Positions 7,858 to 24,495 of a DNA stretch of 64,000 bases are shown here, one piece after another (the stretch's first letter is position 1; each line of letters starts with the position of its first letter). The notes beneath the pieces are model-generated. The model was given only the letters and a program-made list of their open reading frames with translations. It ran no database searches and was not told the DNA's origin. The DNA lies in assembly GCA_030647955.1 (NCBI GenBank), contig JAUSIQ010000004.1, positions 36,533-100,532 of the forward strand. Direction: 5' to 3'. The position numbers and the translations under genes are program-made. This DNA is from a bacterium. Lineage in GTDB: Bacteria > Patescibacteriota > Minisyncoccia > 2-02-FULL-40-12 > IGHO2-12-FULL-4.

Positions 7858-8747
7858 GGTTGCTCTCCTGGCAGTTTTTGTGCCCATAACAAACTTATCT
7901 TGTCTTGAGTTTCGATCTCAATATCCTCAGCTTCTCTTTGTAGTCCCAGTCGAGCTACTTCTTCTTTGATAAGAGAGAAACGGTCCCACTCTGGAGGGCC
8001 ATCGCATCCGGTTCCGGCATGCCAGACTGCTCGAGCAGTATGAATGTTCATAAAAGCAGGGAGTTCTTGGCTTAAAATTCTGGTCTGGTGCATGATGAGC
8101 CAAGGATCGTCGGTAATTTCTACGGCACGAAGTTTGAAAGCGCTGGCTACTTCGGCCATATGCCAATTACGACGAACTTTTTTTTCGGTCAGGATGGATA
8201 AATTGTTATCGGCACAGACAAATAAGACGGGAGCTTTCTTTGTGGAAGCCAATCCCAAGGCGGCGAGTACATAATCTTCTTCGGCACTAGCATCGCCCAT
8301 TACTGCTAAAGTTCTTTGGCCGGCGCCAAAAGCATAACCTATCGCAATAGGAACCTGGGTTCCCATGAAGCCGTCATGCCCGAACATTTTAATGGCGGGG
8401 CTATGAATAGAAGCCGAACCACCCATGCCGCTGGTACAGCCTGTAGGGCGGTGAAGTAATTCGTCTCGCAGAGCGGTAGGATCGCCGCCGTATGCTAAAT
8501 AAAGATCATGACAGCGGTGCTGACCAAAAATGGCCGGGTTAGGAAAGGCGACCGCTAAGGCCGAAGAAATAGATTCTTGGCCAAGAGAGAGATAGATAGG
8601 GCATTTGATTAGTTTCTTTTCCGCTGCTTCCTTAACTTTGAATTCAAAAAATCTCGAGAAGCAAACTTTACTGAACATCGCCAGGGTATCCTCCCGACTG
8701 CATTTAGCAGTCAAACCCGGAAGTAGTCCGTAGTCTTTGGAGCGCAT
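7854..8747 (-). CDS. Transketolase-family N-terminal subunit (TPP-binding)
   Basis: TPP-binding GDASAEED and HDGFMG motifs. 297 aa. Confidence 0.75.
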   Translation of the reverse strand: MRSKDYGLLPGLTAKCSREDTLAMFSKVCFSRFFEFKVKEAAEKKLIKCPIYLSLGQESISSALAVAFPNPAIFGQHRCHDLYLAYGGDPTALRDELLHRPTGCTSGMGGSASIHSPAIKMFGHDGFMGTQVPIAIGYAFGAGQRTLAVMGDASAEEDYVLAALGLASTKKAPVLFVCADNNLSILTEKKVRRNWHMAEVASAFKLRAVEITDDPWLIMHQTRILSQELPAFMNIHTARAVWHAGTGCDGPPEWDRFSLIKEEVARLGLQREAEDIEIETQDKISLLWAQKLPGEQP

Positions 8748-8831: not shown

Positions 8832-10700
8832 CTAATTATGAATAAATGCGTTGAGTGCTTTGCGCGTTATCTCTCCAAAATAGCCGGAGACTGGCCGCAC
8901 ACTGTATTTTTCTTGAAGTCTTTTCACTGCCTCGCGGGTAATATGGCCAAAATAACCCGTAATTAAGTCCGCGGAATAGTTAACCTCGTTGACTAAAAGG
9001 ACCTGGAGCTGTTTGACGTCGTGGCCGATGGAGCCGAGAGTGAGATCTCTGGAGAAACCAGCCAAATTTTCGTTATAAGGCGAGAATGAAGAAGAGGCAG
9101 TTGAAGAACTGTAAGTTACAGTATTGGACTCTGTGCCGATGGAAGAAGAAGAACAAGTATAGTTACTATTACAACCCAAAACCTTATATTTATAGGAATA
9201 ACCATTAACAAAGGCTTCGTCCCCCACTGAACCCCAGGCATGCGTGTCGTTATAAGTATAAGTAGAGCCGTTCTTTAAAGTAGAACCAATCCACACACCA
9301 CAGGCACCAGTTGAAAAATCTCCTCCGTTGACACTCCTATAGACACAGTACAGTGGTGCCCCTGAATCCGGCCAGCTTAAGGTGATTTTTCCAGTACCGA
9401 GAGTAGCTGTTACCGAAGAGGGTGGGTTGTAAGTAACAGGTGTGGGTGTCGGTGTCGGTGTCGGTAAGGCCGGCATAGAGGCCTGTATGGTATATTTAAC
9501 GTTTTGGTTCACGCAATCGATGACATATCCATCGAGCGGAAATTCAGACTGAAGAATATCTACGGTTCCACTGGTAATGGGAGATTTGGGACATGGGGTA
9601 GTGCCATTTTTAGGACTACCTCCCCATATGAATCCTCCGTTGGATTTGTTCACTAAGAATTCACTAAGGCCATCGGGGTCACTGAGTGTTAGAGAATACT
9701 TTACGTTGTCATACTGACCGACAAATAACCGTTCAGCCGCGAGAGAGCTGTTGCTGGGATTGCTAACTGGGGTCGGAGTTGGAACTGGGGTAGAAGTTGA
9801 TGTGGGAGTGGGAGTGGGAGTGGGAGTGGGAGTGGGAGTATGTGATGTAGAAGCCGTAGTCGAAGGGACTGATGACGTTGTGACGGGTGAAGGGGTAAGA
9901 CTGGGAGAGATACTTATGGTCGGTGTCGGAGAAAATGATAAAGAAGCAGTTGGCGATGGCGAATAAGTTACGGTGGGAGTAACAGTGGGGATAGGAGTTG
10001 AAGCTGGATTGACCGTAGAACACTGCCCCACCGTGTCTCCATGGGCGAAGTGTGCTTTGATGGCCGAGGCATCAATGGTGATAGTATTGGCTTCCAGGGG
10101 ATTACCTGACGGATAATGACAGATAACAACTTTACCCACTTCTTTGATGGCGGCATTGGCATCAAGTTTTTCTTCCATTGATGGCTTATGGCCCGGGTTA
10201 ATTCTTTGATAATCAGGAACATCTTTAACGGTATTAAAAGAACTGCCCTTCTGATACCAGTTGAATTCCTTGTTGTTAATACAAAAGACTTTTTTGAAAA
10301 AGTCGGGGTCGTCTTTGACGGCCTGCTCTCCAGTGGTGTTCACCCAGCGGAGCTTGCCGGTATCTTCCCCGCTGATATCTACGCCATAAACTTTGGAGTC
10401 TTTACTCTCGCAATCACGGAAGAGACCAGAGGTGGGGAAGGCCTCCTTTACTTCCTTAGAAACCAATTTTACATTGAAGAACCCTCCCAGATGACCGTAA
10501 AACTTGAAAATCTCGGGATTGAGGAATAAACGCTTGTAGCCCTGGTCATTGATGATGAAGACATCCGGGTCATCGGAGAAGATAGCGCTGATTAAATCGC
10601 CGTCTTTCAAAGCATAATCTGATGGATTAACTGCGAGGACTAGTTCCGTGCTGAAGATCACTAAGAAAAATAATCCCAGAGCCAAGAGTGTTTTGTTCAT
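8832..10700 (-). CDS. Secreted cell-surface protein: signal peptide, conserved N-terminal domain, Thr/Pro-rich linkers, C-terminal putative peptidoglycan-binding (PG_binding_1-like) domain
   Basis: MNKTLLALGLFFLVIFSTELVLA signal peptide. PTPTPTPTPTPT linkers. C-terminal GHDVKQLQVLL...GYFGHITREAVKRLQEKY...GYFGEITRKAL repeats. The N-terminal domain is a paralog of the C-terminal domain of the 41007..42842 protein. Confidence 0.6.
   Translation of the reverse strand: MNKTLLALGLFFLVIFSTELVLAVNPSDYALKDGDLISAIFSDDPDVFIINDQGYKRLFLNPEIFKFYGHLGGFFNVKLVSKEVKEAFPTSGLFRDCESKDSKVYGVDISGEDTGKLRWVNTTGEQAVKDDPDFFKKVFCINNKEFNWYQKGSSFNTVKDVPDYQRINPGHKPSMEEKLDANAAIKEVGKVVICHYPSGNPLEANTITIDASAIKAHFAHGDTVGQCSTVNPASTPIPTVTPTVTYSPSPTASLSFSPTPTISISPSLTPSPVTTSSVPSTTASTSHTPTPTPTPTPTPTSTSTPVPTPTPVSNPSNSSLAAERLFVGQYDNVKYSLTLSDPDGLSEFLVNKSNGGFIWGGSPKNGTTPCPKSPITSGTVDILQSEFPLDGYVIDCVNQNVKYTIQASMPALPTPTPTPTPVTYNPPSSVTATLGTGKITLSWPDSGAPLYCVYRSVNGGDFSTGACGVWIGSTLKNGSTYTYNDTHAWGSVGDEAFVNGYSYKYKVLGCNSNYTCSSSSIGTESNTVTYSSSTASSSFSPYNENLAGFSRDLTLGSIGHDVKQLQVLLVNEVNYSADLITGYFGHITREAVKRLQEKYSVRPVSGYFGEITRKALNAFIHN
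9800..9842 (-). repeat. Coding hexanucleotide microsatellite (GGGAGT)n encoding the (PT)n linker
   Basis: gggagtgggagtgggagtgggagtgggagt on the + strand, inside a CDS. Confidence 0.9.
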
Positions 10701-10767: not shown

Positions 10768-10790
10768 ACCGTGAAAATTTTCACGGTCAG
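10768..10790 (-). terminator. Rho-independent terminator after the GHMP kinase gene
   Basis: Perfect palindrome CCGTGAAAATTTTCACGG followed by a T-run on the minus strand. Confidence 0.55.
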
Positions 10791-11779
10791 TAGGGATTGA
10801 AATGGATTGCTTTGCTTCCACCACAATCAAATCCAAAAGGGACAGAGATCAGGTTTTTTAGTTTTTCTTTGACTTGTTCTTGGAGTTCGGGTTTAATAAA
10901 AAAAAGCATAAATCCACCGCTTCCTGCTCCTAATAATTTTCCACCTAAGGCGCCAGCTTGTTTAGCGGCAGCATAGACCTCGTCAATTATAGAGGTGGTG
11001 ATATTTGAAGCCAGGGTGCGTTTAATTTTCCAAGCCTCATCCAGTAACTGACCGAAGTCTTCCATGTTGGCGTTGCTTGTTAGGATGTGGGCGCCCTCTT
11101 CGACCATTTGGAATAATTCTAAAAGTTCAGTTTTATTTTGAGAAACATTTCTAATCTGTTCTTGGGCAATCACCGATGCTTCTCGAGGAAAATTCACGAA
11201 GAAGAGCATGAGATGATTTCTGAATAGATTTAATCGGGGAGCGGAGAGGATAAGGGGGGAGACTCGAAAAATATCTGGTCCTCCGAAATCGATACGATTA
11301 AATCCTCCAAAAGCTGCTATGGTCTGATCTTGCGATCCGACGTTTTCTTTAATAATCTTTTGTTCAATGTGGATAGCTTCCATGGCTAATTGTCTCGGAT
11401 TGATTATTTCTCCCTTGAGACCGTGCAGGGCTTTTAGCAGTCCGACAGTGAAAGCAGAGCTAGAACCCAATCCTGCTCTCCCGGGAAGATCGGCAAAATA
11501 ACTAATGCCCAAGTGTCTATCATTACCGAGATATCTAATCACTTCACGGGCGGAAGGATGTTTAATGTCATCGATCTTTTGAGCTTTTTCCAATTCAGAG
11601 TAGGCAATCCAAAAACGATAGTCCGTGGTAAATGGTTTAGAAAAGTTACAGGTAATATAGCAGTATTGATCGATGGCAGTAGAAATTACTGCTCCAGGAC
11701 CATAGTTTTCATACCAGGCGGGATAATCAGTCCCGCCTCCTAAAAAGGAGATACGGAACGGAGTGCGGGTGACGATCAT
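10787..11779 (-). CDS. GHMP-family sugar kinase (HddA/fucokinase-like)
   Basis: PGRAGLGSSSAFTVGLL is the GHMP ATP-binding motif. 330 aa. Confidence 0.75.
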   Translation of the reverse strand: MIVTRTPFRISFLGGGTDYPAWYENYGPGAVISTAIDQYCYITCNFSKPFTTDYRFWIAYSELEKAQKIDDIKHPSAREVIRYLGNDRHLGISYFADLPGRAGLGSSSAFTVGLLKALHGLKGEIINPRQLAMEAIHIEQKIIKENVGSQDQTIAAFGGFNRIDFGGPDIFRVSPLILSAPRLNLFRNHLMLFFVNFPREASVIAQEQIRNVSQNKTELLELFQMVEEGAHILTSNANMEDFGQLLDEAWKIKRTLASNITTSIIDEVYAAAKQAGALGGKLLGAGSGGFMLFFIKPELQEQVKEKLKNLISVPFGFDCGGSKAIHFNPY

Positions 11780-11863: not shown

Positions 11864-13198
11864 CTAGTTTTTAGCGCGCCAGTTTTTTAATTGACGATGA
11901 ATAGACAGAACCCAAGAGCGGGGCAAAATGGATTTTGCCACGTTTCTTAAATACTGACGGATGATTTTAATAGCTTCGGAAATCTGCCATAAAATAAATT
12001 CTCCTCTGAGCATAGGCCAGAGCTCGCGCAGACTGCGAGGGTTTTTGCGCGTGATGATTTCTTGTAGAAATTTTTTGCGGACACAGAGATAATGAACGGG
12101 TCCGGATAAGAAATTCCAAGTCAGAGTAAGCCGCGGATTGTTTTCAAGAACCTTCAGACAAGTATTGATCCAATGCGGGTCATCGTACTGTTCGCCAGGA
12201 GGGCAGATAAAAATATATTCTCCTCGAGATTTTTCTAGGGCTTCGTTAATAGCCATAACACCATTGTTGGTGATTACCACGTGCTCAAAATTTCTATAAG
12301 ATTGTTTGGCGAGACTCTCTTTCGTTTTAGCCAACCTGATTCCGTCCAGATCAGTCCAACTTATTATTGAGGCTTTTGGAATACGAGTATCCCAGGCGGG
12401 GTCGAATTTTTCCTGTACGGCTAGAAGCTTCAAGCAATGATCGTAACTGATGGTGGGGAAGGGGGTATAAAGGCTTTGTTCCGAACAGTTCAATATTTCA
12501 ATTGGTTTTATGGAATGGGTCCGGTAGATATGGTGAATAGTGGGTGGTACTACCGGATTGAAGAATTGGTTAGTGTCACGGATCAGGGCAGTCACTGGTT
12601 CGGAGCCGTATTCTTGGGGGCGATAGTAGGTCTCCGTACCCTTCAGGGTGGCCCCATCCGCGCCAAAGAGGATGATTTTGGATGCTCCGCCGACCGTGGC
12701 GAGGTAAATTAATTGGGCGAGGGTGTTACCAATCATAAAATGCAATGGATGGGTGATATTGGGCACGCCCTGGCTTCGACTAATGCCGATAAAAAGCAAC
12801 TTGGGATCATATCGGTGGATAAAGTTTTCCAAACTAAAATCGGGACCGAGTAGTTCCGGTTGGCTTTCAAAGAAGGAAGAGGTGAACATGTTTTCATCGC
12901 TACGGTGGAGAAACTCCTCAATCTTGTCAATGACAGGCGGCAATCCGCGATTGATGCCGGCCATCACCACCGAAAAATGCTTGTTTATTTTCTGTAAAAT
13001 ATGGTTCTCCTGGACGAAAAAAGTGTTCATTCCAAAATAGCAGATGTCTGCTTCGCGCAGTTCTCCGATTCTTTTTTCCAGCTCATTAATAGACGGTCCG
13101 GCGGCTAAAATAGCTACGGGGCGACCGTTAATGATTTTTCGAAGATGGGCGAGACGCTTTTCGGTAAATGGCAAATAATCGGGAGAGTTGAAATTCAT
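11864..13198 (-). CDS. DUF115 / motility-accessory-factor (Maf)-like protein, putative nonulosonic-acid transferase, with a degenerate GT2-like C-terminal region
   Basis: RPVAILAAGPSINELEKRI resembles the MptE-like/DUF115 GxGPS motif. The C-terminal segment YRNFEHVVITNNG...GEYIFICPPGEQYDD is GT2-like. Confidence 0.5.
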   Translation of the reverse strand: MNFNSPDYLPFTEKRLAHLRKIINGRPVAILAAGPSINELEKRIGELREADICYFGMNTFFVQENHILQKINKHFSVVMAGINRGLPPVIDKIEEFLHRSDENMFTSSFFESQPELLGPDFSLENFIHRYDPKLLFIGISRSQGVPNITHPLHFMIGNTLAQLIYLATVGGASKIILFGADGATLKGTETYYRPQEYGSEPVTALIRDTNQFFNPVVPPTIHHIYRTHSIKPIEILNCSEQSLYTPFPTISYDHCLKLLAVQEKFDPAWDTRIPKASIISWTDLDGIRLAKTKESLAKQSYRNFEHVVITNNGVMAINEALEKSRGEYIFICPPGEQYDDPHWINTCLKVLENNPRLTLTWNFLSGPVHYLCVRKKFLQEIITRKNPRSLRELWPMLRGEFILWQISEAIKIIRQYLRNVAKSILPRSWVLSIHRQLKNWRAKN

Positions 13199-13204: not shown

Positions 13205-14146
13205 CTAGGCTTTAGAGGCGACGATAAAGATGTTGGAGGTTATGCGGTGATGGGACAATATATCTTTGTATTTCTGATCAGCATCTTGGATAAGCTGATT
13301 TATCTCCCGACTAGCTTTGGGAGAAAACCCAGAAAAGTTAATTTGAGGCTGGGAAAGACCGAAAGATGAATTAGACTGAGGGGCGTTATTAAAATACCAG
13401 AAGAAGTGATTGAAAAAATTATAGTCCTGCAGAAAATACATTTTATCGATTTTAAAACCCGCTTTTTGACAAAGCTTTTTCAAGCTTTTTGGAGAAAAAT
13501 AGAAGGTATGGGCATCGTGAAAGTAAAATTTACGATAAGCATCCGCCGGCCATAAACTTAGCAGGGCGTCGTGAAGATTGGGAACCTCAATAAACACCTT
13601 TCCGCTAGGGCTTAAAAGATCTTTAGCTTTAGCTAAAAATTGAAGTGGGTTTTGGATGTGCTCTAATGTCTGAAAAGCGGCGATATAATCGAATTTTTTT
13701 TCTTGGAAGTCACAATTTTCCAATGGATCGGTTTTAACCTCAAGGCCGAATTTTTTTTGCACATACCGGGCGCAATGCGTATCCAGTTCTACGCCCGCGC
13801 ACATTTTAAATCGGTCTTTTACTTGAGAAATAAATTGACCAGCCGAACAACCCACCTCCAGGAATGTTTTTTTCTTGCTAAAGAATCTTTTAATAATTCT
13901 TAATCTGTCTCCCTGGAAATTTTTTTCAGTTCTAAATATACCCTCTGGTTTAGAATTTGGTTTTTCTAAATTATTGCTGTGATTTTTTCGGTAATCTTCA
14001 GTGTAATATTGTTTGACGTTAATCTTTTTCTCCTCCAAGATTCCTAATTGGCAAGATGGACAATGAAATACGCGTCGAGATGTACCATCCCGTAGTTGCT
14101 TGGTAAGGATATTCAGTTTGGGCTGCTGACATATAAGACAGATCAT
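13205..14146 (-). CDS. Class I SAM-dependent methyltransferase with N-terminal zinc-ribbon (sugar C/O-methyltransferase-like)
   Basis: CLICQQP...HCPSCQLG zinc ribbon. FLEVGCSAGQF SAM motif I. Confidence 0.7.
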   Translation of the reverse strand: MICLICQQPKLNILTKQLRDGTSRRVFHCPSCQLGILEEKKINVKQYYTEDYRKNHSNNLEKPNSKPEGIFRTEKNFQGDRLRIIKRFFSKKKTFLEVGCSAGQFISQVKDRFKMCAGVELDTHCARYVQKKFGLEVKTDPLENCDFQEKKFDYIAAFQTLEHIQNPLQFLAKAKDLLSPSGKVFIEVPNLHDALLSLWPADAYRKFYFHDAHTFYFSPKSLKKLCQKAGFKIDKMYFLQDYNFFNHFFWYFNNAPQSNSSFGLSQPQINFSGFSPKASREINQLIQDADQKYKDILSHHRITSNIFIVASKA

Positions 14147-14349
14147 ATGCGATGTCTCTTAAAATGCTTTTTTAGGTAAGTTAAAAGGAGGCTGCCTTTA
14201 GTGGCAATTTCATATTCCAAATATTCAAAGTCTTCGGGTAAGTCGATTTCGATAATAGGCGGCATGAGGAAGGGAAGAATTTTATTTCCGTAAACTTTAC
14301 GTTTGTCGGAATAGGGGAGGTAATCTTTGGAGAAGAAATTTAGTTGCAT
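14143..14349 (-). CDS. Small protein (68 aa); its N-terminal 16 aa resemble the N-terminus of the Maf-like protein
   Basis: Own promoter TTGTTA-N17-TATACT with ATG 6 nt downstream, so the mRNA is leaderless. Start/stop overlap with the methyltransferase gene is ATGA. NFFSKDYLPYSDKRKV aligns with NFNSPDYLPFTEKRLA. Confidence 0.4.
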   Translation of the reverse strand: MQLNFFSKDYLPYSDKRKVYGNKILPFLMPPIIEIDLPEDFEYLEYEIATKGSLLLTYLKKHFKRHRI

Positions 14350-14425: not shown

Positions 14426-15169
14426 CTACTGCTTTGATGAATAGTTACTGGATAAGTAACGCCAAAGTGGTCCTGGATCTCGGTTTAGCTCGAACTCTAA
14501 GAATTCCCAATCGCGAGGGTTGTCTGCCTCTGTGGCGTGAGAGGTGGAAAAGCCCAAGATTTTCAGACCAAATGCGGTTTGGTTATTAAGAAGAAATTCC
14601 TGGCGAACAATATCCACGTAACCATTGGGAATATACGCCTTGGGAAATAATTGTCTTGGGAGGCTGTGATATTCTGGGCGGGGATCGTCAGGAAAATATC
14701 CCGAAAAAAATCCTTGGGCATCGATGTGAAACATCTTTTGGGGTGGTTCTGCCGCTTCATGCCCGGAACGAAGAGAATCAGCCTGAGGGTTGACGAGGAA
14801 CTGTTTGGTAGCTTCATCGATTATCGTTGGGTCACGAAAAGGAGTGGTGGGTCTTAAATATACCCAGGTCGTAGGCGCCGTATCGTTTTCAGTAAACCAC
14901 TCTGCCGCATGCCTCAAGGGCGGAAAATCAGCTGAAGAATCTTGGGCAAATTCACTCGGTCTTAAAAATGGAGTCTCTGCTCCAAAGCTTCTGGCAATGA
15001 TCGCAATTTCCTCGGAGTCGGTAGAAACAATCGTGCGGGTGATTTTTTTGGAAAGGCGAGAGGCGATAATCGAGTAGGCGATGAGCGGAAATCCGCCTAG
15101 AAGTTTTATATTTTTTTTGGGAATGGCCTTTGATCCAATGCGAGCGGGAATAAGGGAATAAGTTCCCAT
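14426..15169 (-). CDS. Acylneuraminate (nonulosonate/ulosonate) cytidylyltransferase, CMP-sugar synthetase family (NeuA/KdsB-like)
   Basis: MGTYSLIPARIGSKAIPKKNIKLLGGFPLIAYSI N-terminal signature of CTP_transf_3. Confidence 0.75.
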   Translation of the reverse strand: MGTYSLIPARIGSKAIPKKNIKLLGGFPLIAYSIIASRLSKKITRTIVSTDSEEIAIIARSFGAETPFLRPSEFAQDSSADFPPLRHAAEWFTENDTAPTTWVYLRPTTPFRDPTIIDEATKQFLVNPQADSLRSGHEAAEPPQKMFHIDAQGFFSGYFPDDPRPEYHSLPRQLFPKAYIPNGYVDIVRQEFLLNNQTAFGLKILGFSTSHATEADNPRDWEFLEFELNRDPGPLWRYLSSNYSSKQ

Positions 15170-15214
15170 ATCGTAAACTCCTTTTTAAAGTTGCTGACCT
15201 AGTTGTAAACTTTT

Positions 15215-15245
15215 GGTTTACTATTGTCAATTAAAAACCTCGCCA
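15215..15245 (-). terminator. Rho-independent terminator after the NeuB-like gene, followed by the TTGACA-N17-TACAAC promoter of the cytidylyltransferase gene
   Basis: Minus strand reads AACCTCGCCCTGGCGAGGTTTTTAA. Confidence 0.5.
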
Positions 15246-15253
15246 GGGCGAGG

Positions 15254-16129
15254 TTACAGAGTTTTCTTTCTTCGAAGTTTTTTCTCAATAGGTAACTCAG
15301 AGGCTAGTACGATTTTTTCGGCCTTACCAAGATATGCAGGTAAGGCTCTAATTTCAGTTGCTAAGCGGCCCATGCCCCCTACTTCCAGGCTGGCGGCTTG
15401 GTCCGAGCCCCACATGGCTCGATCAAGAGTAATGTGGCGTTCAACAACACAAGCTCCCAGGGCGGCTGCCACTAGGGAAGGATACGCTCCTACTTCATGA
15501 CCGGAATAACCGATCGGTACTCTCGGATATTTTTTAATGAGTCTCGGAATGTTGGCTAAATTCAATTCCGAAGGATCTGCCGGGTAAGTGGAGGTGCAGT
15601 GCAAAATTACCAATCCCTCTTCTCCTAACAAACTGACCATGCGTTCAATCGCCTGATCGTCCGCCATACCAGTAGAAAGAATTATGGGGCGGCCCTTTGA
15701 TCTGACGTGGATTAAAAGGTCTTTGTCCAGGTTACAGGCCGAAGCGATTTTGTAGCAAGGAGGATTGTAGAAATCTAAGAAATCAACACTAGCTTCATCC
15801 CAAGGAGAGGCAAACCACAAAATTCCTTTTTCTTCGCAATAAGCATCAATTTCATCATACTGCTCTTCGCTAAATTCCAAGCCCCGCTTGAGGTCGCCAT
15901 TGGTGGGACCAAAAGGATTTTCGCGCGGACGAGCCAGCTCTTCCGGTGTGTAAACCACATCCACCGTTCTCTTTTGAAATTTCACCGCATCCCATCCGGC
16001 CTTTACGGCCTCATCAATTAATCTCTTGGCAATATTGATATCGCCGTTATGATTGATGCCAATTTCACCAATAAGAAAACACGGTTGGCCCGGGCCAACT
16101 AATTTATTTCCGATCCATACAGTACCCAT
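15254..16129 (-). CDS. NeuB-family nonulosonic-acid (sialic/Kdn/legionaminic-type) synthase
   Basis: GQPCFLIGEIGINHNGDINIAKRLIDEAVKAGWDAVKFQKRT is the NeuB TIM-barrel signature. 291 aa, so it lacks the C-terminal SAF domain. Confidence 0.8.
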   Translation of the reverse strand: MGTVWIGNKLVGPGQPCFLIGEIGINHNGDINIAKRLIDEAVKAGWDAVKFQKRTVDVVYTPEELARPRENPFGPTNGDLKRGLEFSEEQYDEIDAYCEEKGILWFASPWDEASVDFLDFYNPPCYKIASACNLDKDLLIHVRSKGRPIILSTGMADDQAIERMVSLLGEEGLVILHCTSTYPADPSELNLANIPRLIKKYPRVPIGYSGHEVGAYPSLVAAALGACVVERHITLDRAMWGSDQAASLEVGGMGRLATEIRALPAYLGKAEKIVLASELPIEKKLRRKKTL

Positions 16130-16228: not shown

Positions 16229-17182
16229 TTAAGAAGAGAGTGGAGGCCAATGGGCGGGATCAACCTGCCTTGGATCATCAATAGCCAGCAACCTCAGCTG
16301 AGATAAAATTTCCTCCCAAAGAGGGCCGGGGGAGGCGGCATTGACCGCAGCCTTTAAGTGCCCGACTTTATTGGTCCCAATCAACGAAGAAGCAATGCGA
16401 TTTTCAGAGGCGACGAAGCAAATAGCCAGTTGTGGTAGGCTCATGCGATGCTTTTTGGCAATCTTTTCCGCTATAGCAGAGTGCTCTTTGAGTTTTTCAA
16501 GACTTGGAGGGAGTTGGTGCACCAAGGGAGTTAGTGATCCTTTTAATAAAACAGAGCGATTAATCACTCCAATATTATTGCGATGCGCTTCGGCTAAAAC
16601 TTCTTTAGCCATTCGCTGATCAAGAATACTATAAGCTACCTGGATAACATCAAAGAAGCCCGTCCTCACGGCTGCCAAGGGGGCTTCTTCACCCCTTGTG
16701 CTAATGCCGGTGTATCTAATTTTACCTTTGTCTTTAAGGTTTTGTAGGATGTCAATCAGTAAACCACTCTCAATTTGCCCTCGAGATCCACCATGAAGAT
16801 AAAGCAGTGGCAGAGAATCTAATTGTAGTTTTCTTAGACTATCTTCCACTTGTTCTTCAATCCTTTTTTGAATCTCGAGAGGTTCGAGTAATTCTCCTTG
16901 TTCTAGGAATTGACCGCATTTGGTTCCCACTAATACGCCTTTTATTTTGGCGATGCCCGATCTCCCAATGCGCTCTTCGGCCAGTTGATAAAAGTTAGCC
17001 GTGTCGAAATAGGTAATGCCCAAATCTACGGCGGTATTAAGAATGTTCTCTGCTTCCTCTTCGGTCGGTAAAGAACGAGAACCAATACCATAAGCAAAGC
17101 CGATTTCTGCTGTTCCGAGGCCAATTCTAGAAATTTTATACTCAGTTCTTCCTAGATGTCGGTAGTTTCCACAGTGGCCCAT
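16229..17182 (-). CDS. Aldo/keto reductase
   Basis: AKR-family N-terminus IGLGTAEIGFAYG. 317 aa. Confidence 0.8.
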   Translation of the reverse strand: MGHCGNYRHLGRTEYKISRIGLGTAEIGFAYGIGSRSLPTEEEAENILNTAVDLGITYFDTANFYQLAEERIGRSGIAKIKGVLVGTKCGQFLEQGELLEPLEIQKRIEEQVEDSLRKLQLDSLPLLYLHGGSRGQIESGLLIDILQNLKDKGKIRYTGISTRGEEAPLAAVRTGFFDVIQVAYSILDQRMAKEVLAEAHRNNIGVINRSVLLKGSLTPLVHQLPPSLEKLKEHSAIAEKIAKKHRMSLPQLAICFVASENRIASSLIGTNKVGHLKAAVNAASPGPLWEEILSQLRLLAIDDPRQVDPAHWPPLSS

Positions 17183-17200
17183 CTTATTCTCCTTTCATGT

Positions 17201-18034
17201 TTACCAACAAGTTCTTCCACCGTCTATAACTAGATTAGCCCCGGTCATATAAGCAGAAGCATTGGAACATAAAAAAAGGATAGCGGCTTTGTACTCATCT
17301 CCGTTGGCCATACGGCCCATGGGGATGAGGTTAGTGAGTCTCTGCACGAAGTCATCTTCTAGGCCGGTATTGTAGATTCCGGCGGGAGAAATAGCGTTCA
17401 CTCTGACTCCTTGGTCGGCCCAATAGGTTGCCAAATATTTTGTTAACCCGATCAGGGCATGCTTGATAACCGAATAGCTCACGGGTTTAACCTGGTGCTC
17501 TCCGGGCTTATCTCCTTCCTTCTGATAAATACGCTGGTCGGGAGCGATGATGGCCAAATCCGAGGCGATGTTTAAAATCACCCCCCTTTTATTTCTAGCC
17601 ATGTGCTGACCGATAACGCGGCTCATGATTAAAGCTCCGGTAACGCTTACCGCAAAATCTTTGTTCCACGCTTCGATCGGCATATTCTCTAAACGACTAA
17701 GATTTTTCCCGCCACCTTCTACTACGGGATTGTTTGCAGCGTTATTGATTAATATTGAGATGGACCCAATTTCGCGAATAATGCGGCTTATAACACGAGT
17801 AACTTCTTTTTCTTTGGTGATGTCCAAGGTGTATCCCCAGACTTTTCTGGGGTAGGAAAATGGAAAATACTGCAAGGCTTTCCCGATGGCTTTATCGTTA
17901 ATATCCAATAATACTACTCGACCATTGCCGTCGAGAATGGCTTCGGCATGTTTTTTGCCCAGGAAACCGGCTCCACCGGTAATGACGGCCAAGTCACCTT
18001 CCAAATCAAACTTGCGAATAGTGCCAAAGGTCAT
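17201..18034 (-). CDS. SDR-family oxidoreductase
   Basis: AVITGGAGFLGKK cofactor motif and YSVIKHA (YxxxK). Confidence 0.75.
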   Translation of the reverse strand: MTFGTIRKFDLEGDLAVITGGAGFLGKKHAEAILDGNGRVVLLDINDKAIGKALQYFPFSYPRKVWGYTLDITKEKEVTRVISRIIREIGSISILINNAANNPVVEGGGKNLSRLENMPIEAWNKDFAVSVTGALIMSRVIGQHMARNKRGVILNIASDLAIIAPDQRIYQKEGDKPGEHQVKPVSYSVIKHALIGLTKYLATYWADQGVRVNAISPAGIYNTGLEDDFVQRLTNLIPMGRMANGDEYKAAILFLCSNASAYMTGANLVIDGGRTCW

Positions 18035-18035
18035 A

Positions 18036-18857
18036 TTATCCTCCTGTTTTAGTCCAGATTTCTTTTACGAAATCCAATTGTCGTTTGGCATCGCCGATAT
18101 AATCTTCTCCGCGCCAGGCTTGTAGAACGAATAGTCCGTCAAAGCCAATGTCATGAAGAGCACGAAAGCACTCTTCGAAATTAACGTCACCCTCACCCAA
18201 GTAAACTGATTGCGTGGAGCCAACTTTGCGATCTTTGAGATGAACCTGTTTAATCATCTTCCCGAGCAGGCGAATGTCTCGCGGCAGATCGTGGCCTAGA
18301 GTAATTAGATTGCCGGTGTCGTAACAGGCGCCAATGCGGGCATCGTCAAAAATTTCAATAAACTCTCGTAACTCATCTCCAGGTAGTTCGGTTTCCAGAG
18401 CAAGTTCAATCCCCAAACCATCGATGTCTTTAAGAAAGCGAGTTAAGCAGGCAAAAACATCGATTTTGTCACGTAGAGTTTTGATTGTAAACTCTTCTAA
18501 GATCGGAATACCGATTAGTTTTATTCTTGAAGAAAAAGCTCCAACTGCTGCACGGCGAAGTATCCTAGAGATTTTTTCATGGGCATTTCTCGTTAGCCGG
18601 TTTTTCATAAAGTAATCGGCGCAGATGGAGTGTACTGGGGTGCCAGACTCTTCAACAATTTTATTGATCATTTCTGACCCAATGTTTTTTTCGATGGGGT
18701 TGTAGTAGCGATCATCCCAGTCCCAAACCCACTCAATGCAATCAAAGCCAAGTTGTTTAGCAATAGGAAATTCTTTTTGCCAGTCTTTGGGAAAAAACTG
18801 CAGGCGTCCGTCTTGAGATGGTGAAAGCCGGCTTTGCATAATACCGAATTTGGCCAT
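18036..18857 (-). CDS. Sugar-phosphate isomerase/epimerase, xylose-isomerase-like TIM barrel
   Basis: AP-endonuclease-2/xylose-isomerase-like TIM-barrel features. 273 aa. First gene of the minus-strand operon. Confidence 0.65.
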   Translation of the reverse strand: MAKFGIMQSRLSPSQDGRLQFFPKDWQKEFPIAKQLGFDCIEWVWDWDDRYYNPIEKNIGSEMINKIVEESGTPVHSICADYFMKNRLTRNAHEKISRILRRAAVGAFSSRIKLIGIPILEEFTIKTLRDKIDVFACLTRFLKDIDGLGIELALETELPGDELREFIEIFDDARIGACYDTGNLITLGHDLPRDIRLLGKMIKQVHLKDRKVGSTQSVYLGEGDVNFEECFRALHDIGFDGLFVLQAWRGEDYIGDAKRQLDFVKEIWTKTGG

Positions 18858-18979: not shown

Positions 18980-20746
18980 ATGAGCGCCTCAGGATTAGTT
19001 ATGATTAATCTCCCTCGATTTCCGGGCGGAGGGCATACGCATCCCGCCGAGGTAATTGCGGGTATTAAGCCTGCCGATTTGGCCGGGTTAAAAATAGTTT
19101 TTATTAATATGCCTTTGCGTGAGACAGCTGTTCCGAATACGACCCCCGAAGGTCCGTTACTGATGGCCACTAATCTTCGAAAGAATTACGGCGTATATGC
19201 CACGGTTATCGATCTCAATGCTTATCGGATTAAAGACGAGCTGGCCCAAAACAAAGGTTTGACTCATGGGCGACATTTAACACCCGAGGAAACCTTCGAA
19301 TTAATCCAGAAGCATTTTTTGGTTCATGGCGAACCCGACGTGGTGGCTTTATCTGGCATGATCACTACTCTGCGTTGGCAGGAAGCGGTCACGAAGATGA
19401 TCAGAACTATTTTGCCGGATGTTTTTCTGGTTTCTGGCGGTGGTTTGGCAACGGAGCTGAAGGCCGGTCTGTTTAACTATATCTCTGGTCTTGATGCGGT
19501 GGCGCACTCCGAAGGGGACGATGTCGTCGTGAAAATTTGTTTTGATGCCCAGCTGATTAAGAGAAAAGGATTTAACGGAGCATTGCTGGCCGGGAATCTT
19601 GAGCCTTACTATCTTGGTTATACTAAAGGCCGACATCGGCTGATGTACGCCGGGGACCGGCCTCGTGATTTGGATAGTTTGCCTTTCGCTGATTTAGATT
19701 TATTGGCAGAAGATGTGAATGGACACAAGATTCTAGATTATTATTTAGGTAATGATGTCTGGGGTATTGGAGCGAATAATAGCTCCGCCACACCATTTCA
19801 AATGACGCGTAGTACGACTTCGGTTTCTTCGCGGGGTTGTCCCTTTGCCTGTCAGTATTGTTATCGTGGCGCGCAGGGCGAAAGAAAGTGGGGCGTGCGT
19901 TCGGCTGAACATATTTATAAAGAGATGCTTCACCATCAGGAAAAATACGGCATTGATTTCAAGGGATTTCCCGATGATAATTTTGCTGTGACCATTGGAC
20001 GGATTGTGGATTTAGTTCCTCTGCTTGGTCCTTTGGGGATTCGTTGGGGAACTCATACTCGACTCGACGAAGCGGCCGGTCTTAAGCCGATCAGTAGTCG
20101 TCCAGGAGAGTATGTTTTTGAAGATCCACATCGTATCGAGCTGATGGCCAAAGCGGGCTGTGTCTACATCGGCTTTGGTCCCGAGAGCGCTAACAAAGAA
20201 GTATTAGAGGCGATTGGTAAGGGTGGGCATACTTTGACTAACGGATTTGTCCCAAAAGTCGTCAACGGAAAAACATATAATTTCGCTCGCTCGATGATTG
20301 TGGGAATTGAAAACTGTTTGAGATTTGGAATCCATTCCAACTGTACCTGGATTATGGCTCTGCCGACTGAAAATCTCGAACGCTTAAAGGAATCTGTGGC
20401 CTTTATCAAATGGCATGAGGATCTCTATATTCAAAATGGATTGCCAACTGATTCCGTGAATAAAAAAATGTTTACGTTGACCTGGTATCCCGGAACGGAA
20501 ATTATTCGGCATACCAAAGTCAGACAGGAATTGACGAGAGTTTTTGGTGTTACCTTTAACGAGAGATTAGAACCGATTTGTGACGAGAAGTTTTATAAGT
20601 ATTTAATTGAGCTGGACGATGCTACTAAAGTTCTCTACGGTAATAACGATGAGCCGTTGAACTTTGGAGATATGCCCATGGACCAGTTTCTTCAGGCTCG
20701 AGAATATGTCGACTCCGATCAAATTTTCAAAATTTTAGAAATGTAA
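18980..20746 (+). CDS. B12-binding-domain radical SAM enzyme (class B; putative sugar C-methyltransferase/epimerase)
   Basis: CPFACQYC CxxxCxxC radical-SAM motif at about residue 285. It follows an N-terminal region of about 280 aa consistent with a cobalamin-binding domain. AAGGAG RBS. Confidence 0.7.
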   Translation: MSASGLVMINLPRFPGGGHTHPAEVIAGIKPADLAGLKIVFINMPLRETAVPNTTPEGPLLMATNLRKNYGVYATVIDLNAYRIKDELAQNKGLTHGRHLTPEETFELIQKHFLVHGEPDVVALSGMITTLRWQEAVTKMIRTILPDVFLVSGGGLATELKAGLFNYISGLDAVAHSEGDDVVVKICFDAQLIKRKGFNGALLAGNLEPYYLGYTKGRHRLMYAGDRPRDLDSLPFADLDLLAEDVNGHKILDYYLGNDVWGIGANNSSATPFQMTRSTTSVSSRGCPFACQYCYRGAQGERKWGVRSAEHIYKEMLHHQEKYGIDFKGFPDDNFAVTIGRIVDLVPLLGPLGIRWGTHTRLDEAAGLKPISSRPGEYVFEDPHRIELMAKAGCVYIGFGPESANKEVLEAIGKGGHTLTNGFVPKVVNGKTYNFARSMIVGIENCLRFGIHSNCTWIMALPTENLERLKESVAFIKWHEDLYIQNGLPTDSVNKKMFTLTWYPGTEIIRHTKVRQELTRVFGVTFNERLEPICDEKFYKYLIELDDATKVLYGNNDEPLNFGDMPMDQFLQAREYVDSDQIFKILEM

Positions 20747-20777: not shown

Positions 20778-22070
20778 TTATTTAGTTTCGTCTTCGATAG
20801 CGACACTCCTAATCGCTTCGGATACAACATCGATCGCTTCATAAAGAGCATGGGCGTCAATGGTCAGTGGCGGAGCTAGTTTAATAGAGTGCTTAAAAGT
20901 ACAGACCGGCAGGACGCCATTCCCAATGCATTTCATGACTACGCGAGTAGCCGCATCGGTATCGTGGAAAATCAGTCCAGCAATCATGCCTCGCACATTA
21001 ACCATCTTGACTAAGGGAAATCTTATCAGGCCCTCGAGTCCGGCCTGGAAAATATTCATCGTTCTTTGGCGTTCGGCGATAAAGTTCGGATCGCTTAAGA
21101 ATTCAATGTTAGCCAGTCCGGCCGCACAACAGAGCGGATTGCCCGAATGAGTGCCATGCAAATCCGCTTCTTTATCATCGATAATTTCTGCCCTGCTTAA
21201 GACGGCTGAAAGAGGCAGAGAGGAGGTTATGCCTTTTCCTAAGCAGATAATATCGGGCTGAAGATCGCCGTAAGTCATATAACCGTACAGTGGTCCCAGG
21301 CGATAAAATCCAGCCTGCATCTCATCGAAACAAACCAGCGCACCGGAATTTTTGGCAAAAGCATAGAGAGAGTCGATATATTGCTGAGGATAGAACCAGG
21401 CGCCCCATCCCTGGAAAGTTTCCAAAAAGAAGCCGGCAATTTGATCTGCCGGAATTTGGTCTCCAGAAGGAAGGCGAAGGCTCTTTGGATCAAAGCGATC
21501 ATTGGCGCGATAGGGGAAGTCGAGAAAGATCACGTCGCTATCTTTTACTCCCGACCAGTCTCCCTTTTCCGGACTCCCGCAAATGAAATCATTACCCAAA
21601 CCTTGGCCGTGATAGCTTCCGCGGAAGGTAATGATATATCGGCGATGTTGCTTTTTGGCCCATAGTTTGACGAGCTTGTAAGCGGCACCCATTACTTCCG
21701 ATCCCGAGTTTAGTAAGAGGGCTTTGTTGAAGTGCGGAGGAGAGAGCTCCAATAATTTAGACAGAAACTTTTGACGAATATCGGTGGGATAGGTGTAGGA
21801 GAAAAGCAGATTTGCGTCGAGTTGTTTCTTGATGGCCTCTATGATGAAAGGATTGGCGTGACCAGCATTAGCCACAAAAATCCCCGAGGTCATGTCAATC
21901 CACTTATTGCCGTGGTCGTCAAAAACAGAAAAGTCTACGGCTTTATTCCAAGTAATTGGAGTACCATTGGCGGCTAAATGCGGTTCCAGGTCCCAAAGTT
22001 TTTTATAAAGCTCATCTTTTTGGAGAACAAAACCATCTTGAATTTCGCGATAGCGAGTCTTAATAGCCAA
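20778..22070 (-). CDS. Class III PLP-dependent aminotransferase
   Basis: VFDEMQAGFYRLG and GKGITSS motifs carry the conserved Lys. 430 aa. Confidence 0.75.
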   Translation of the reverse strand: MAIKTRYREIQDGFVLQKDELYKKLWDLEPHLAANGTPITWNKAVDFSVFDDHGNKWIDMTSGIFVANAGHANPFIIEAIKKQLDANLLFSYTYPTDIRQKFLSKLLELSPPHFNKALLLNSGSEVMGAAYKLVKLWAKKQHRRYIITFRGSYHGQGLGNDFICGSPEKGDWSGVKDSDVIFLDFPYRANDRFDPKSLRLPSGDQIPADQIAGFFLETFQGWGAWFYPQQYIDSLYAFAKNSGALVCFDEMQAGFYRLGPLYGYMTYGDLQPDIICLGKGITSSLPLSAVLSRAEIIDDKEADLHGTHSGNPLCCAAGLANIEFLSDPNFIAERQRTMNIFQAGLEGLIRFPLVKMVNVRGMIAGLIFHDTDAATRVVMKCIGNGVLPVCTFKHSIKLAPPLTIDAHALYEAIDVVSEAIRSVAIEDETK

Positions 22071-23630: not shown

Positions 23631-23631
23631 A

Positions 23632-24495
23632 TTAAACAATATCAGCAAAATATCTTTCTGTTTTTTTGAAAACGACTACCCCAATAACCAAAGCCAGAAT
23701 TCCAAAAGCCGTGGAAATACCAAGTAGGGTCCAATTAATAGGTGTAGTGCCTAAGATAGAAGAGCGGGCGGCTTTGATTACGCCGGTCATGGGATTTAAG
23801 GCTAAGATCCAAGAATATTTTCCGGCGATGCTTGGAGGGTATATTACCGGAGTAACGAAGAGAAGCATCTGGATGAAGTAAGGTAGGGCGTAGCGTACGT
23901 CGCGGTATTTAACATTGATAGAGGCTAAGAACATGCCGATACCTACGGCGATCATAAAGGTGATGACTAAAAGCAAGGGAAGAATCCAGAACCCCATAAG
24001 GTTTGGTAAGAATTGGTAGTAGGCCATGATGCCAATCAAGACAATGAAAGAAATGGCGAAGTCTACAAAATTAGTGAGGGTGGAGGAGACGGGTAAAATC
24101 AAACGCGGAAAGTAAACCTTGGTCACGATGCCGGTGTTATTAGTTAAGCTAGCGCTAGCGCCGTTTAGCGAAGCGGAGAAAAATTGCCACAAAAGTAATC
24201 CGACAAAAACAAAGATCGGATAGGGCACACCTTCGGAGGGCATTTTTGCAAAGTGGCCGAAAAAGATACTAAAAACCACCATAGTCATGAAGGGTTGGAA
24301 AACCGCCCAGCCCACCCCAATGATGGTCTGTTTGTAGCGTACCTTGATGTCTCTCCAAGTAAAAAAATAGAGCAGTTCGCGGTACTGCCAGAGTTCTTTA
24401 AAATCCTCCCAACTCAAGTGTTTTTTGGGTCGAATAATTGTTTCAGTAGCCATATTATATATTACAACTATAGCAAAAGAACCATTAATTGACAA
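23632..24495 (-). CDS. ABC-2 type polysaccharide/teichoic-acid export permease (Wzm/TagG-like)
   Basis: Six predicted TM helices. ABC-2 permease signature layout upstream of the ATPase. Confidence 0.75.
   Translation of the reverse strand: MSINGSFAIVVIYNMATETIIRPKKHLSWEDFKELWQYRELLYFFTWRDIKVRYKQTIIGVGWAVFQPFMTMVVFSIFFGHFAKMPSEGVPYPIFVFVGLLLWQFFSASLNGASASLTNNTGIVTKVYFPRLILPVSSTLTNFVDFAISFIVLIGIMAYYQFLPNLMGFWILPLLLVITFMIAVGIGMFLASINVKYRDVRYALPYFIQMLLFVTPVIYPPSIAGKYSWILALNPMTGVIKAARSSILGTTPINWTLLGISTAFGILALVIGVVVFKKTERYFADIV

Follow-up and report, generated by a model that had tools for sequence, protein, structure and literature searches.

We analyzed a 64,000-nucleotide stretch of DNA from a bacterium of the Patescibacteriota (assembly GCA_030647955.1, contig JAUSIQ010000004.1, positions 36,533 to 100,532; hereafter the window, numbered from its first letter). 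It carries, in tandem, genes for a NeuB-family synthase and a CMP-ulosonate synthetase. A preliminary description of this DNA had proposed that the pair makes CMP-activated ketodeoxynonulosonic acid (Kdn) from mannose-6-phosphate (Man-6-P) and phosphoenolpyruvate (PEP). Our preferred reading, to which we give an even chance of being correct, is that the two genes would form the core of a heptose-7-phosphate-dependent ulosonic-acid pathway whose product is a C10 ulosonate and not Kdn. The two genes are as follows.

14426–15169, minus strand: CMP-ulosonate synthetase of 247 aa (CTP_transf_3, PF02348, E = 1e-16)
15254–16129, minus strand: NeuB-family synthase of 291 aa (Pfam NeuB, E = 2e-71)

The synthase matches the complete Pfam NeuB profile PF03102 (240.6 bits), its residues 37–272 spanning profile positions 1–241 of 241. 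No SAF domain was matched in the Pfam search, and the protein ends at position 278 of the 329 positions of the TIGR03569 profile. A 291-residue synthase devoid of an SAF domain, with a CMP-sugar synthetase in tandem, is what the preliminary description had recognized, and both assignments hold. The scores of 225 bits against TIGR03569 (NeuB_NnaB, cutoff 399.65) and 192.1 bits against TIGR03586 (PseI, cutoff 340.25) are below threshold, and the predicted protein is not a NeuB, PseI, or LegI equivalog. The metal-binding histidine pair and the PEP-binding and catalytic residues of NmNeuB (E25, K53, Q55, K129, S132, S154, Y186, S213, H215, E234, H236, and D247) are all found in the window enzyme (E22, K50, Q52, K127, S130, S152, Y182, S209, H211, E230, H232, and D243, respectively). 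These positions are invariant among 79 members of the family, save that of S154, which is Ser in 76 of the 79. The exception is Glu134 of NmNeuB, at whose position the window enzyme has Cys132 and the family Ser, Cys, or Ala; every canonical enzyme compared keeps an acidic residue there.

The Kdn-9-phosphate (Kdn-9-P) synthetase of Prymnesium parvum is a biochemically characterized, Man-6-P-specific enzyme that lacks an SAF domain (PMC6200933); its coding sequence was taken from the supplement of that paper. The window family has in common with it a KFQKR motif, a basic loop rich in Pro and Gly (P-x-x-N-P...G-x-T-x-G...LEF), and a Ser or Cys at the Glu134 position. Window NeuB is 36% identical to the P. 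parvum enzyme (144 bits), with a range of 33–37% across the family. The same enzyme scores 79 bits against NmNeuB and lower still against PseI, SpsE, and the SAF-less Leptospira protein 6NCS. In neighbor-joining trees, the window core family was monophyletic (99% bootstrap), and together with long paralogues and the P. parvum synthetase it formed one clade (98%), in which a direct sister relation received 63%. NmNeuB, Bacillus subtilis SpsE, 6NCS, and SAF-bearing paralogues from the same loci fell outside this clade. Phylogeny and specificity residues were among the checks that the preliminary description had proposed, and both group the synthase with Kdn-9-P synthetase, the tree setting it apart from NmNeuB and SpsE.

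The nearest relatives of window NeuB are 72–79% identical and belong to Parcubacteria-type members of the candidate phyla radiation (CPR), namely Yanofsky-, Wolfe-, and Sungbacteria. More than 8000 database relatives lay within the E-value cutoff, and a genome scan gave at least 569 matches. The best 80 of these are 52–65% identical and include Saccharibacteria, Nitrospirota, Chloroflexota, Acidobacteriota, Myxococcota, Planctomycetota, Melainabacteria, Verrucomicrobiota, and Gemmatimonadota. Overall the family is 52–79% identical over more than 15 phyla, one member residing on a contig labeled Pacearchaeota (DPANN archaea). Identity of only 33–37% to Kdn-9-P synthetase, against 52–79% within the family across phyla, suggests a distinct orthologous group. 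By this comparison, window NeuB belongs to a tightly conserved, uncharacterized orthologous group found in many bacterial phyla; the family is very abundant, and we know of no characterized member.

Gene neighborhoods were counted by tblastn over 86 non-redundant loci of the family, 53 of which have at least 8 kb of flanking sequence on both sides (individual loci are given L numbers below). The most constant neighbor of NeuB is a YrbI/KdsC-type HAD phosphatase: 69 of the 86 loci have one, as do 47 of the 53 with full flanks, and in 58 loci it lies within 3 kb of NeuB. A cluster of CMP-synthetases from 38 loci consists of ~400-residue proteins (median 394 aa) that contain the phosphatase as a C-terminal domain. 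Several stand-alone family HADs score above the TIGR01670 cutoff for the YrbI subfamily. Against the KDN-9-P phosphatase model (NF058599), the family HADs reach 74–127 bits, and none attains the equivalog cutoff of KdsC or of KDN-9-P phosphatase; the genuine enzyme BT1713 scores 264 bits. Their sequences place them as phosphatases of the YrbI subfamily but fix no substrate.

The routes to neuraminic (Neu), legionaminic (Leg), and pseudaminic (Pse) acids use unphosphorylated sugars, and a phosphatase is without a role there. The clade formed with Kdn-9-P synthetase, the common motifs, and the phosphatase as constant neighbor together argue for a phosphorylated-intermediate route similar to the Kdn and animal-type routes, rather than for a Neu, Pse, or Leg route, and we regard this part of the prediction as well supported. 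To that extent the Kdn-like route put forward at the outset stands, because clade and phosphatase favor a phosphosugar; as for Man-6-P and Kdn themselves, the comparative evidence given below leans instead toward a substrate linked to GmhA. The window has a phosphatase of its own:

1561–2154, minus strand: divergent YrbI/KdsC-type HAD phosphatase (KDN-9-P phosphatase and KdsC models matched at 61–65 bits, short of their cutoffs)

It scores 64.8 bits against NF058599 (cutoff 180), has an insertion of ~25 aa, retains the DxD and GDxxxD motifs, and is 29% identical to the Kdn-9-P phosphatase of Bacteroides thetaiotaomicron. We regard it as a candidate ulosonate-phosphate phosphatase. The KdsC-type HAD that had been named in the preliminary description is thus real and carries the catalytic motifs, but it is divergent and all of its scores lie below cutoff.

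The identity of the sugar phosphate is suggested by GmhA, the sedoheptulose-7-phosphate isomerase. Four distinct proteins (P0042, P0081, P0241, and P0317) are fusions of NeuB with an SIS_2 domain, and P0042 and P0081 are 67–68% identical to window NeuB. The fused SIS_2 domain scores 209.0 bits against the gmhA equivalog, for which the cutoff is 209.45. At least four single open reading frames (ORFs) join a YrbI-type HAD to GmhA (L050, L035, L009, and L029, in Myxococcota-type and other loci); the matches of these HADs are of the YrbI/KdsC type, with no GmhB-type model among them. GmhA was found in 29 of the 86 loci, within 3 kb of NeuB in 19, and the loci that carry it are scattered over the whole family tree, including the sub-clade of the window itself (L082, L084, L087, and L089). 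A six-gene signature composed of GmhA, the HAD, the CMP-synthetase, a short-chain dehydrogenase/reductase (SDR), a TIM-barrel enzyme, and a GFO-type oxidoreductase recurs in Chloroflexia, Myxococcota, and an archaeal contig. The operon of the Chloroflexia locus L007 has the order CMPsyn/HAD-NeuB-TIM-GFO-SDR-GmhA, and neither a heptose kinase nor a nucleotidyltransferase is among its annotated neighbors. In L084, the NeuB-GmhA fusion gene is flanked by genes for a transaldolase and a split transketolase; transaldolase and transketolase make sedoheptulose-7-phosphate. The family-wide fusions of GmhA to NeuB and to the phosphatase point to heptose-7-phosphate as the substrate.

Split thiamine pyrophosphate (TPP) enzyme pairs of the transketolase/E1 type recur beside NeuBs of this family (L084, 4674–5703; L085/L086, at 17472–19239 in L085; L089, 1–2022; L090, 4886–6696). 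Their carriers are CPR bacteria, a DPANN-labeled archaeal contig, and a cultured methanotroph. Such pairs might supply sedoheptulose-7-phosphate or extend the chain by two carbons. The window has a TPP pair as well, which gave no direct sequence match to the pair of L086. A parallel with PtmF of Campylobacter jejuni as an SIS isomerase was rejected, because a paper on Plesiomonas describes PtmF as an oxidoreductase of 326 aa (and PtmA as an SDR); what was retained is the resemblance of the SDR and GFO partners.

We propose the following route. GmhA would convert sedoheptulose-7-phosphate to D-glycero-D-manno-heptose-7-phosphate, and the SAF-less NeuB would condense PEP with this terminally phosphorylated manno-type aldose to give a 3-deoxy-C10-ulosonate 10-phosphate. 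The YrbI/KdsC-type HAD phosphatase would then remove the phosphate. The SDR, the TIM-barrel enzyme, and an aldo-keto reductase (AKR) or a GFO-type enzyme would tailor the sugar, joined in CPR-type clusters by a class-III aminotransferase, methyltransferases, and a B12-radical-SAM enzyme. The CTP_transf_3 enzyme would produce the CMP-sugar. Finally, a transferase with a Cst-II/Maf-like and a GT-A domain would add the sugar to a surface glycan, and Wzm/Wzt would export it. The scheme builds on what the domains are, on the conservation of catalytic residues, on the position in the trees, on the gene fusions, and on the neighborhood counts; from these we infer in which order the steps occur, which aldose phosphate is used, what each tailoring enzyme does, and which acceptor receives the sugar. 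The literature that we searched contained no description of a GmhA-NeuB pathway or of a C10 ulosonate made from heptose, and none relevant on nonulosonic acids in CPR bacteria. In its wider form, our proposal is that this NeuB family, GmhA, the YrbI-type phosphatase, and the CMP-synthetase would constitute an undescribed pathway from sedoheptulose-7-phosphate to a CMP-activated "deculosonic" acid that is aminated and C-/O-methylated in CPR bacteria and DPANN archaea; this we offer tentatively, at somewhat under an even chance.

The sugar-biosynthesis genes of the window form one long minus-strand run, from ~18.9 kb down to ~0.6 kb. The exporter, flippase, glycosyltransferases, ligase-like protein, GDP-mannose dehydratase, and initiating sugar transferase nearby place the module within a surface-glycan locus of ~42 kb. 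Its further features are listed below.

After the KdsC-like HAD gene, minus strand: SDR, the last gene in block order
2221–3204, minus strand: SDR-type epimerase/dehydratase (Epimerase, E = 4e-27)
3156–3698, minus strand: RmlC-like protein (dTDP_sugar_isom, E = 7e-44)
3658–4848, minus strand: DegT aminotransferase (DegT_DnrJ_EryC1, E = 7e-70)
Between DegT and the TPP pair, minus strand: DJ-1 gene, cupin gene (5568–6314), and HAD_2 gene
6952–7887 and 7854–8747, minus strand: split TPP-dependent enzyme of the E1/transketolase superfamily (matches to E1_dh/TPP_enzyme_C and Transket_pyr/Transketolase_C)
8832–10700, minus strand: PG_binding protein of 622 aa, with a C-terminal peptidoglycan-binding domain as its only match
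10787–11779, minus strand: GHMP sugar kinase (GHMP_kinases_N and _C; nearest HddA)
11864–13198, minus strand: putative two-domain glycosyltransferase of 444 aa (sub-threshold MptE-like match; AlphaFold2 model and Foldseek)
13205–14146, minus strand: S-adenosylmethionine (SAM)-dependent methyltransferase (Methyltransf_23, E = 6e-24)
14143–14349, minus strand: ORF of 68 aa, apparently a chimeric remnant (similar to a CMP-synthetase C terminus and a transferase N terminus)
16229–17182, minus strand: AKR (Aldo_ket_red, E = 4e-39)
17201–18034, minus strand: SDR oxidoreductase (adh_short_C2, E = 3e-41)
18036–18857, minus strand: xylose-isomerase-like TIM-barrel enzyme (AP_endonuc_2, E = 3e-24)
18980–20746, plus strand: B12-binding radical-SAM enzyme, divergent from the block (Radical_SAM and B12-binding domains)
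20778–22070, minus strand: class-III (omega-type) aminotransferase, beyond the B12-radical-SAM gene (Aminotran_3; acetylornithine/omega-transaminase family matches)
22341–24495, minus strand: Wzt/Wzm-type ABC polysaccharide exporter in two ORFs (ABC_tran and Wzt_C; ABC2_membrane)
25294–27051, plus strand: carbamoyltransferase, adjoining the ABC exporter
27095–28177, plus strand: SGNH/AlgX-like acyl-hydrolase, adjoining the ABC exporter
34133–35206: GDP-mannose 4,6-dehydratase
Farther along the locus: flippase, glycosyltransferases, O-antigen-ligase-like protein, and initiating sugar transferase

Pfam matches bear out the neighbors that the preliminary description had named, that is, the same-strand TIM-barrel, SDR, and AKR genes upstream (18857–16229) and the methyltransferase, putative transferase, and GHMP kinase genes downstream (14146–10787). 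It had also given each gene of the pair its own promoter and terminator. Terminator-like hairpins follow the AKR (16230–16208), NeuB (15255–15236), and CMP-synthetase (14417–14397) genes, and a promoter-like site precedes NeuB (16191–16164, 10 of 12 positions of the consensus); all of these are consensus matches only. The Wzt/Wzm exporter is the likely export route for the glycan. The carbamoyltransferase and the SGNH/AlgX-like acyl-hydrolase beside it suggest that the glycan is O-carbamoylated and O-acylated.

In the closest relatives (L086 to L089), the module comprises the SDR, AKR, TIM-barrel enzyme, class-III aminotransferase, B12-radical-SAM enzyme, methyltransferase, transferase, GHMP kinase, and HAD. 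The SDR is a conserved partner of the synthase: homologues with at least 38% identity occur in 31 of the 86 loci and in 24 of these lie no more than 3 kb from NeuB, and the window enzyme is 51–53% identical to those of L088 and L089, 30% to that of L086, and 52% to that of an Azospirillum thermophilum plasmid. The AKR is 58–60% identical to the syntenic genes of L087 and L088 (24% in L086) and would act in tailoring. The TIM-barrel enzyme has homologues in 22 of the 86 loci (30–34% identity in the closest relatives), and its nearest NCBIfam model, L-ribulose-5-phosphate 3-epimerase, is matched below cutoff; we infer a tailoring role for it as a sugar or keto-sugar epimerase or dehydratase. TIM domains are also found fused in a 636-aa NeuB+SAF+AP_endonuc_2 protein (L007, 18840–20750) and a 612-aa AP_endonuc_2+GFO_IDH_MocA protein (L089, 12476–14314). 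Both fusion proteins establish a direct connection between the TIM-barrel enzyme and the synthase step.

The B12-radical-SAM enzyme, a probable C-methyltransferase, shares 55–57% identity with genes beside NeuB in L086 and L087. The methyltransferase is 52% identical to the gene that follows the CMP-synthetase in L088 and 22–25% identical to those elsewhere, and the GHMP kinase is 52–57% identical to its counterparts in L086, L087, and L088. The class-III aminotransferase is 63–67% identical in L086 and L088 and 38% in L087. Since this omega-type enzyme is conserved beside the module, the final sugar is probably aminated, which is the opposite of the deaminated product that had been expected from the window at first. 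The suggestion of a modified, for example methylated, ulosonate is reasonable, with the SDR, AKR, methyltransferase, B12-radical-SAM enzyme, and aminotransferase 51–67% identical to genes of at least one CPR relative.

Cultured bacteria carry the family as well, with the orthologues WP_245987099 in A. thermophilum CFH 70021 and WP_221067100 in Methylomagnum ishizawai RS11D-Pr. A plasmid of the latter, a methanotroph, has the gene order split transketolase, class-III aminotransferase, SDR, NeuB, and HAD. The A. thermophilum plasmid (L091; NZ_CP029359, 1–18822) encodes NeuB and a degenerate CMPsyn-like/HAD fusion, with the SDR and TIM-barrel genes ~5–8 kb downstream, past an IS21 insertion. NeuB is divergent there from an operon with most of the legionaminic-acid genes (legB, legC, neuC, and genes for an acetyltransferase, a nucleotidyltransferase, a CMP-synthetase, and an SDR). 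This plasmid could hold a pair of adjacent ulosonate pathways or else a hybrid. Six loci from Acidobacteriota and other phyla (L017, L019, L026, L031, L047, and L053; ~8–14 kb in each) have NeuB and a KdsC-type phosphatase beside a YerE-like TPP enzyme of ~605 aa, together with CDP-glucose pathway genes, a DegT-like protein, and FkbM methyltransferases, and no CMP-synthetase. In these loci, a branched higher-carbon sugar might be built with the free ulosonate as 2-oxo-acid donor. In L087, a complete Sungiibacteriota genome (CP066690), a bAvd accessory gene and a reverse transcriptase gene (16954–18357) stand directly beside the ulosonate cluster; the two look like a diversity-generating retroelement.

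The 444-aa protein had been described as a Maf-like transferase. Its match to the MptE-like (DUF115) model is below threshold (20.4 bits, cutoff 34.6), but 14 of 28 homologues match, with a best E-value of 7.5e-7. The homologues are mostly ~600 aa long and have a GT2 domain. A sequence search of the PDB with the window protein gave no match, including none to a solved Maf structure; the profile of its family matches GT2/GT-A structures. Foldseek paired the N-terminal domain of the AlphaFold2 model (pLDDT 86) with the sialyltransferase Cst-II (2X63; probability 1.0, E = 1.3e-4, target-normalized TM-score 0.45) and the C-terminal part with GT-A folds. L086 and L088 have a syntenic counterpart of the gene (46–47% identity). 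A CMP-ulosonate transferase composed of a sialyltransferase-like (Cst-II or MptE/Maf-like) domain and a GT-A domain is plausible on this model. The Maf-like label fits half of the homologues and the Cst-II-like fold, but the window protein itself stays below threshold.

The best PDB relatives of the CMP-synthetase are the NeuA CMP-sialate synthetases 9FTB (E = 1.5e-24), 6IFD, and 1EYR. Its best NCBIfam match is PseF (113 bits), and because this is below the equivalog cutoff of 205.7, the sequence does not set the sugar specificity. It is 49–60% identical to the syntenic genes of CPR relatives and 41–60% over the set L086 to L089. The 68-aa ORF downstream overlaps the start codon of the methyltransferase gene (ATGA). 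Its residues 15–66 are 50% identical to the C terminus of a Wolfebacteria CMP-synthetase (E = 1e-10) and only 32% to the resident one, and residues 1–17 resemble the N terminus of the 444-aa transferase family. The ORF looks like a chimeric scar, left by replacement of the NeuB/CMP-synthetase cassette and made of the 3' end of another CMP-synthetase gene and the 5' end of a transferase-like gene.

The row of DegT, RmlC-like, and epimerase genes (2221–4848) matches the RfbH/PseC/LegC, rmlC, and LegB models, all below cutoff, and the six loci of CPR/DPANN relatives that were checked do not conserve it. It is probably a separate branch of the same glycan locus, for a nucleoside diphosphate (NDP)-(amino)deoxy-sugar. 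The ORFs annotated in the 42-kb glycan locus include no N-acetyltransferase, no NeuC/LegG/PseG-type gene, and no SAF-type synthase. The window had been said to lack both a DegT-type aminotransferase and an acetyltransferase; the second statement agrees with our annotation, but the DegT gene (3658–4848) and the class-III gene (20778–22070) are present. The cupin (5568–6314), which had been linked to mannose-6-phosphate isomerase, gives sub-threshold matches to Cupin_2 (21.8 bits, gathering cutoff 27.2) and to MannoseP_isomer (18.7 bits, cutoff 23.6), and that link does not hold up. A tblastn search of 88 related loci returned no match for the cupin, HAD_2, DJ-1, PG-binding, and TPP-subunit genes of the window, which places them outside the conserved module. 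The 622-aa PG_binding protein, encoded in the middle of the sugar-biosynthesis operon, is one of these (homologues in 0 of 88).

Several observations weigh against a heptose-7-phosphate substrate in the window. A tblastn search with two GmhA domains did not find gmhA in the 64 kb, and the phosphatase is divergent and lies 13 kb from NeuB, although in relatives it is adjacent or fused. In the CPR relatives L087 and L088, gmhA is accompanied by genes for a GHMP kinase and an NTP-transferase and could there feed an ordinary GDP-heptose branch, and in the large sub-clade of Anaerolineae no gmhA occurs within 5 kb. The nearest characterized enzyme uses Man-6-P and not a heptose phosphate, and a GmhA-like isomerase could in principle make Man-6-P from fructose-6-phosphate. 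The trees are neighbor-joining trees with a small reference set of one characterized Kdn-9-P synthetase and three PDB fragments, with BT1714, human NANS, and LegI left out. Kdn biosynthesis, in which Man-6-P and PEP would give Kdn-9-P, Kdn, and CMP-Kdn, followed by methylation, amination, or reduction, therefore stays a serious rival through the missing gmhA, the distant divergent phosphatase, the GDP-heptose option in relatives, and the possible isomerization of fructose-6-phosphate, even though we judge it unlikely. It would agree with a Man-6-P-specific synthetase as closest characterized relative, with a YrbI-type phosphatase partner as in B. thetaiotaomicron, with the many loci (e.g. of the Anaerolineae type) that have no gmhA nearby, and with the GDP-mannose 4,6-dehydratase (34133–35206) and the weak phosphomannose-isomerase-like cupin of a window devoid of gmhA. 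The cupin matches are, however, sub-threshold and the gene is not conserved, and the family phosphatases stay below the KDN-9-P phosphatase and KdsC cutoffs, far from the score of BT1713. The gap in identity between Kdn-9-P synthetase and the members of the family suggests a separate orthologous group. A Kdn route leaves the NeuB-GmhA and HAD-GmhA fusions and the adjacency of gmhA unexplained. The product is probably not Kdn. The window GHMP kinase, whose best NCBIfam model is the D-glycero-D-manno-heptose-7-phosphate kinase HddA (E = 6e-37; 128 bits, cutoff 600), weakly suggests that the organism makes heptose-7-phosphate somewhere.

Two other explanations concern different precursors. NeuB could act as a LegI or PseI equivalent on an unphosphorylated sugar and make a Leg/Pse-type 5,7-diamino nonulosonate from an NDP-hexosamine prepared by the DegT aminotransferase and dehydratase (2221–4848). 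The locus does contain DegT and an SDR-type epimerase/dehydratase with sub-threshold PseC, LegC, and LegB matches, Leg clusters typically have a PtmA-like SDR and a PtmF-like GFO as partners, and the A. thermophilum family gene stands divergently beside a legB-legC-neuC operon. We consider this explanation highly improbable, since the annotated ORFs offer neither an N-acetyltransferase nor a NeuC/LegG/PseG hydrolase, the synthase lies outside the NeuB, LegI, and PseI clade and below the PseI and NeuB/LegI cutoffs, the near-universal phosphatase would be without a role, and the DegT block lacks conservation across the six CPR/DPANN loci. A different phosphosugar, such as N-acetylmannosamine-6-phosphate (ManNAc-6-P) in an animal-type Neu5Ac-9-phosphate route, arabinose-5-phosphate, or a remodeled sugar phosphate that would yield neither Kdn nor a simple heptose adduct, is improbable in our estimate, if less so. 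The TIM-barrel domains fused to NeuB-type and GFO proteins, together with the split transketolase-like pairs and class-III aminotransferases that recur beside NeuB, suggest that the substrate is remodeled before or after condensation. Against such a precursor, the window shows no UDP-GlcNAc 2-epimerase, ManNAc kinase, or KdsD-type isomerase, and the GmhA fusions point to the unmodified GmhA product as the direct substrate of NeuB.

Sialic-acid-like sugars have a part in recognition, in susceptibility to phages, and in attachment to hosts. To our knowledge, all of their well-characterized backbones have eight or nine carbons and known precursors. If the coupling to GmhA reflects the substrate, the pathway would make a new C10 ulosonic acid by a Kdn-like phosphorylated route and widen the chemical space of surface glycans. 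A new backbone class of sialic-acid-like sugars would then have a wide distribution on the cell surfaces of ultra-small uncultured bacteria, DPANN archaea, Chloroflexi, Myxococcota, and Acidobacteria, and would give studies of episymbiotic CPR bacteria a definite surface structure to work on. The cultured carriers A. thermophilum and M. ishizawai make the question directly testable. A 2026 preprint reports unassigned CMP-activated C10 ulosonic acids in Magnetospirillum, which are diacetamido compounds with no genes linked to them (10.64898/2026.04.20.719630); the C10 sugar proposed here might be related to the marker ions, reported from microbial surveys, of such unassigned C10 ulosonic acids.

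As predicted from sequence, phylogeny, and gene context, the module would work like the Kdn and the NANS/NANP/CMAS routes, but it is no demonstrable member of the Kdn-9-P synthase, NeuB, LegI, or PseI equivalogs. The Kdn route is represented by the BT1714 synthase, the BT1713 phosphatase, and a CMP-Kdn synthetase in B. thetaiotaomicron and by the Kdn-9-P and CMP-Kdn synthetases in P. parvum (PMC6200933). With these systems the window family shares a NeuB-type synthase of ~300 aa that lacks SAF and would act on a sugar 6-phosphate, a YrbI/C0-type HAD phosphatase, and a CMP-transferase, in addition to the clade and motifs of the P. parvum enzyme. It differs in its low identity (synthase, ~35%; CMP-synthetase, 25%; phosphatase, 29%) and in having partners of its own, namely GmhA with multiple fusions, an SDR, a TIM-barrel enzyme, and a GFO or AKR.

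The animal enzymes NANS, NANP, and CMAS follow the same logic, in which a phosphosugar and PEP give a ulosonate-9-phosphate that is dephosphorylated and activated with CMP (PMC6200933). Unlike the window synthase, NANS has a C-terminal antifreeze-like (SAF) domain and uses ManNAc-6-P, for which no supply genes are found here. NeuB, LegI, and PseI (NmNeuB, 1XUZ; PseI, 8H2C) share the NeuB TIM-barrel fold family and the metal- and PEP-binding residues. The window family differs from them in the missing SAF domain, the change of Glu134 to Cys or Ser, scores below the equivalog cutoffs, and a position outside their clade, and its phosphatase partner implies a phosphorylated substrate, which theirs is not. 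The SAF-less "NeuB" of Leptospira, 6NCS, is the best PDB sequence match of window NeuB (E = 3e-39) and has a similar length of ~290 aa with no SAF domain, but it lacks the KFQKR motif and the loop, keeps an acidic residue at the Glu134 position, and falls outside the clade of the window family and Kdn-9-P synthetase. Finally, the module resembles the GDP-/ADP-D-glycero-D-manno-heptose pathway (GmhA, HddA/HldE, GmhB, and HddC) in that GmhA is shared at the family level and the window encodes an HddA-like GHMP kinase. It departs from that pathway in operons such as L007, L050, and L089, in which the partners of GmhA are NeuB, a KdsC-type HAD, and a CMP-synthetase in place of a kinase, GmhB, and a nucleotidyltransferase.

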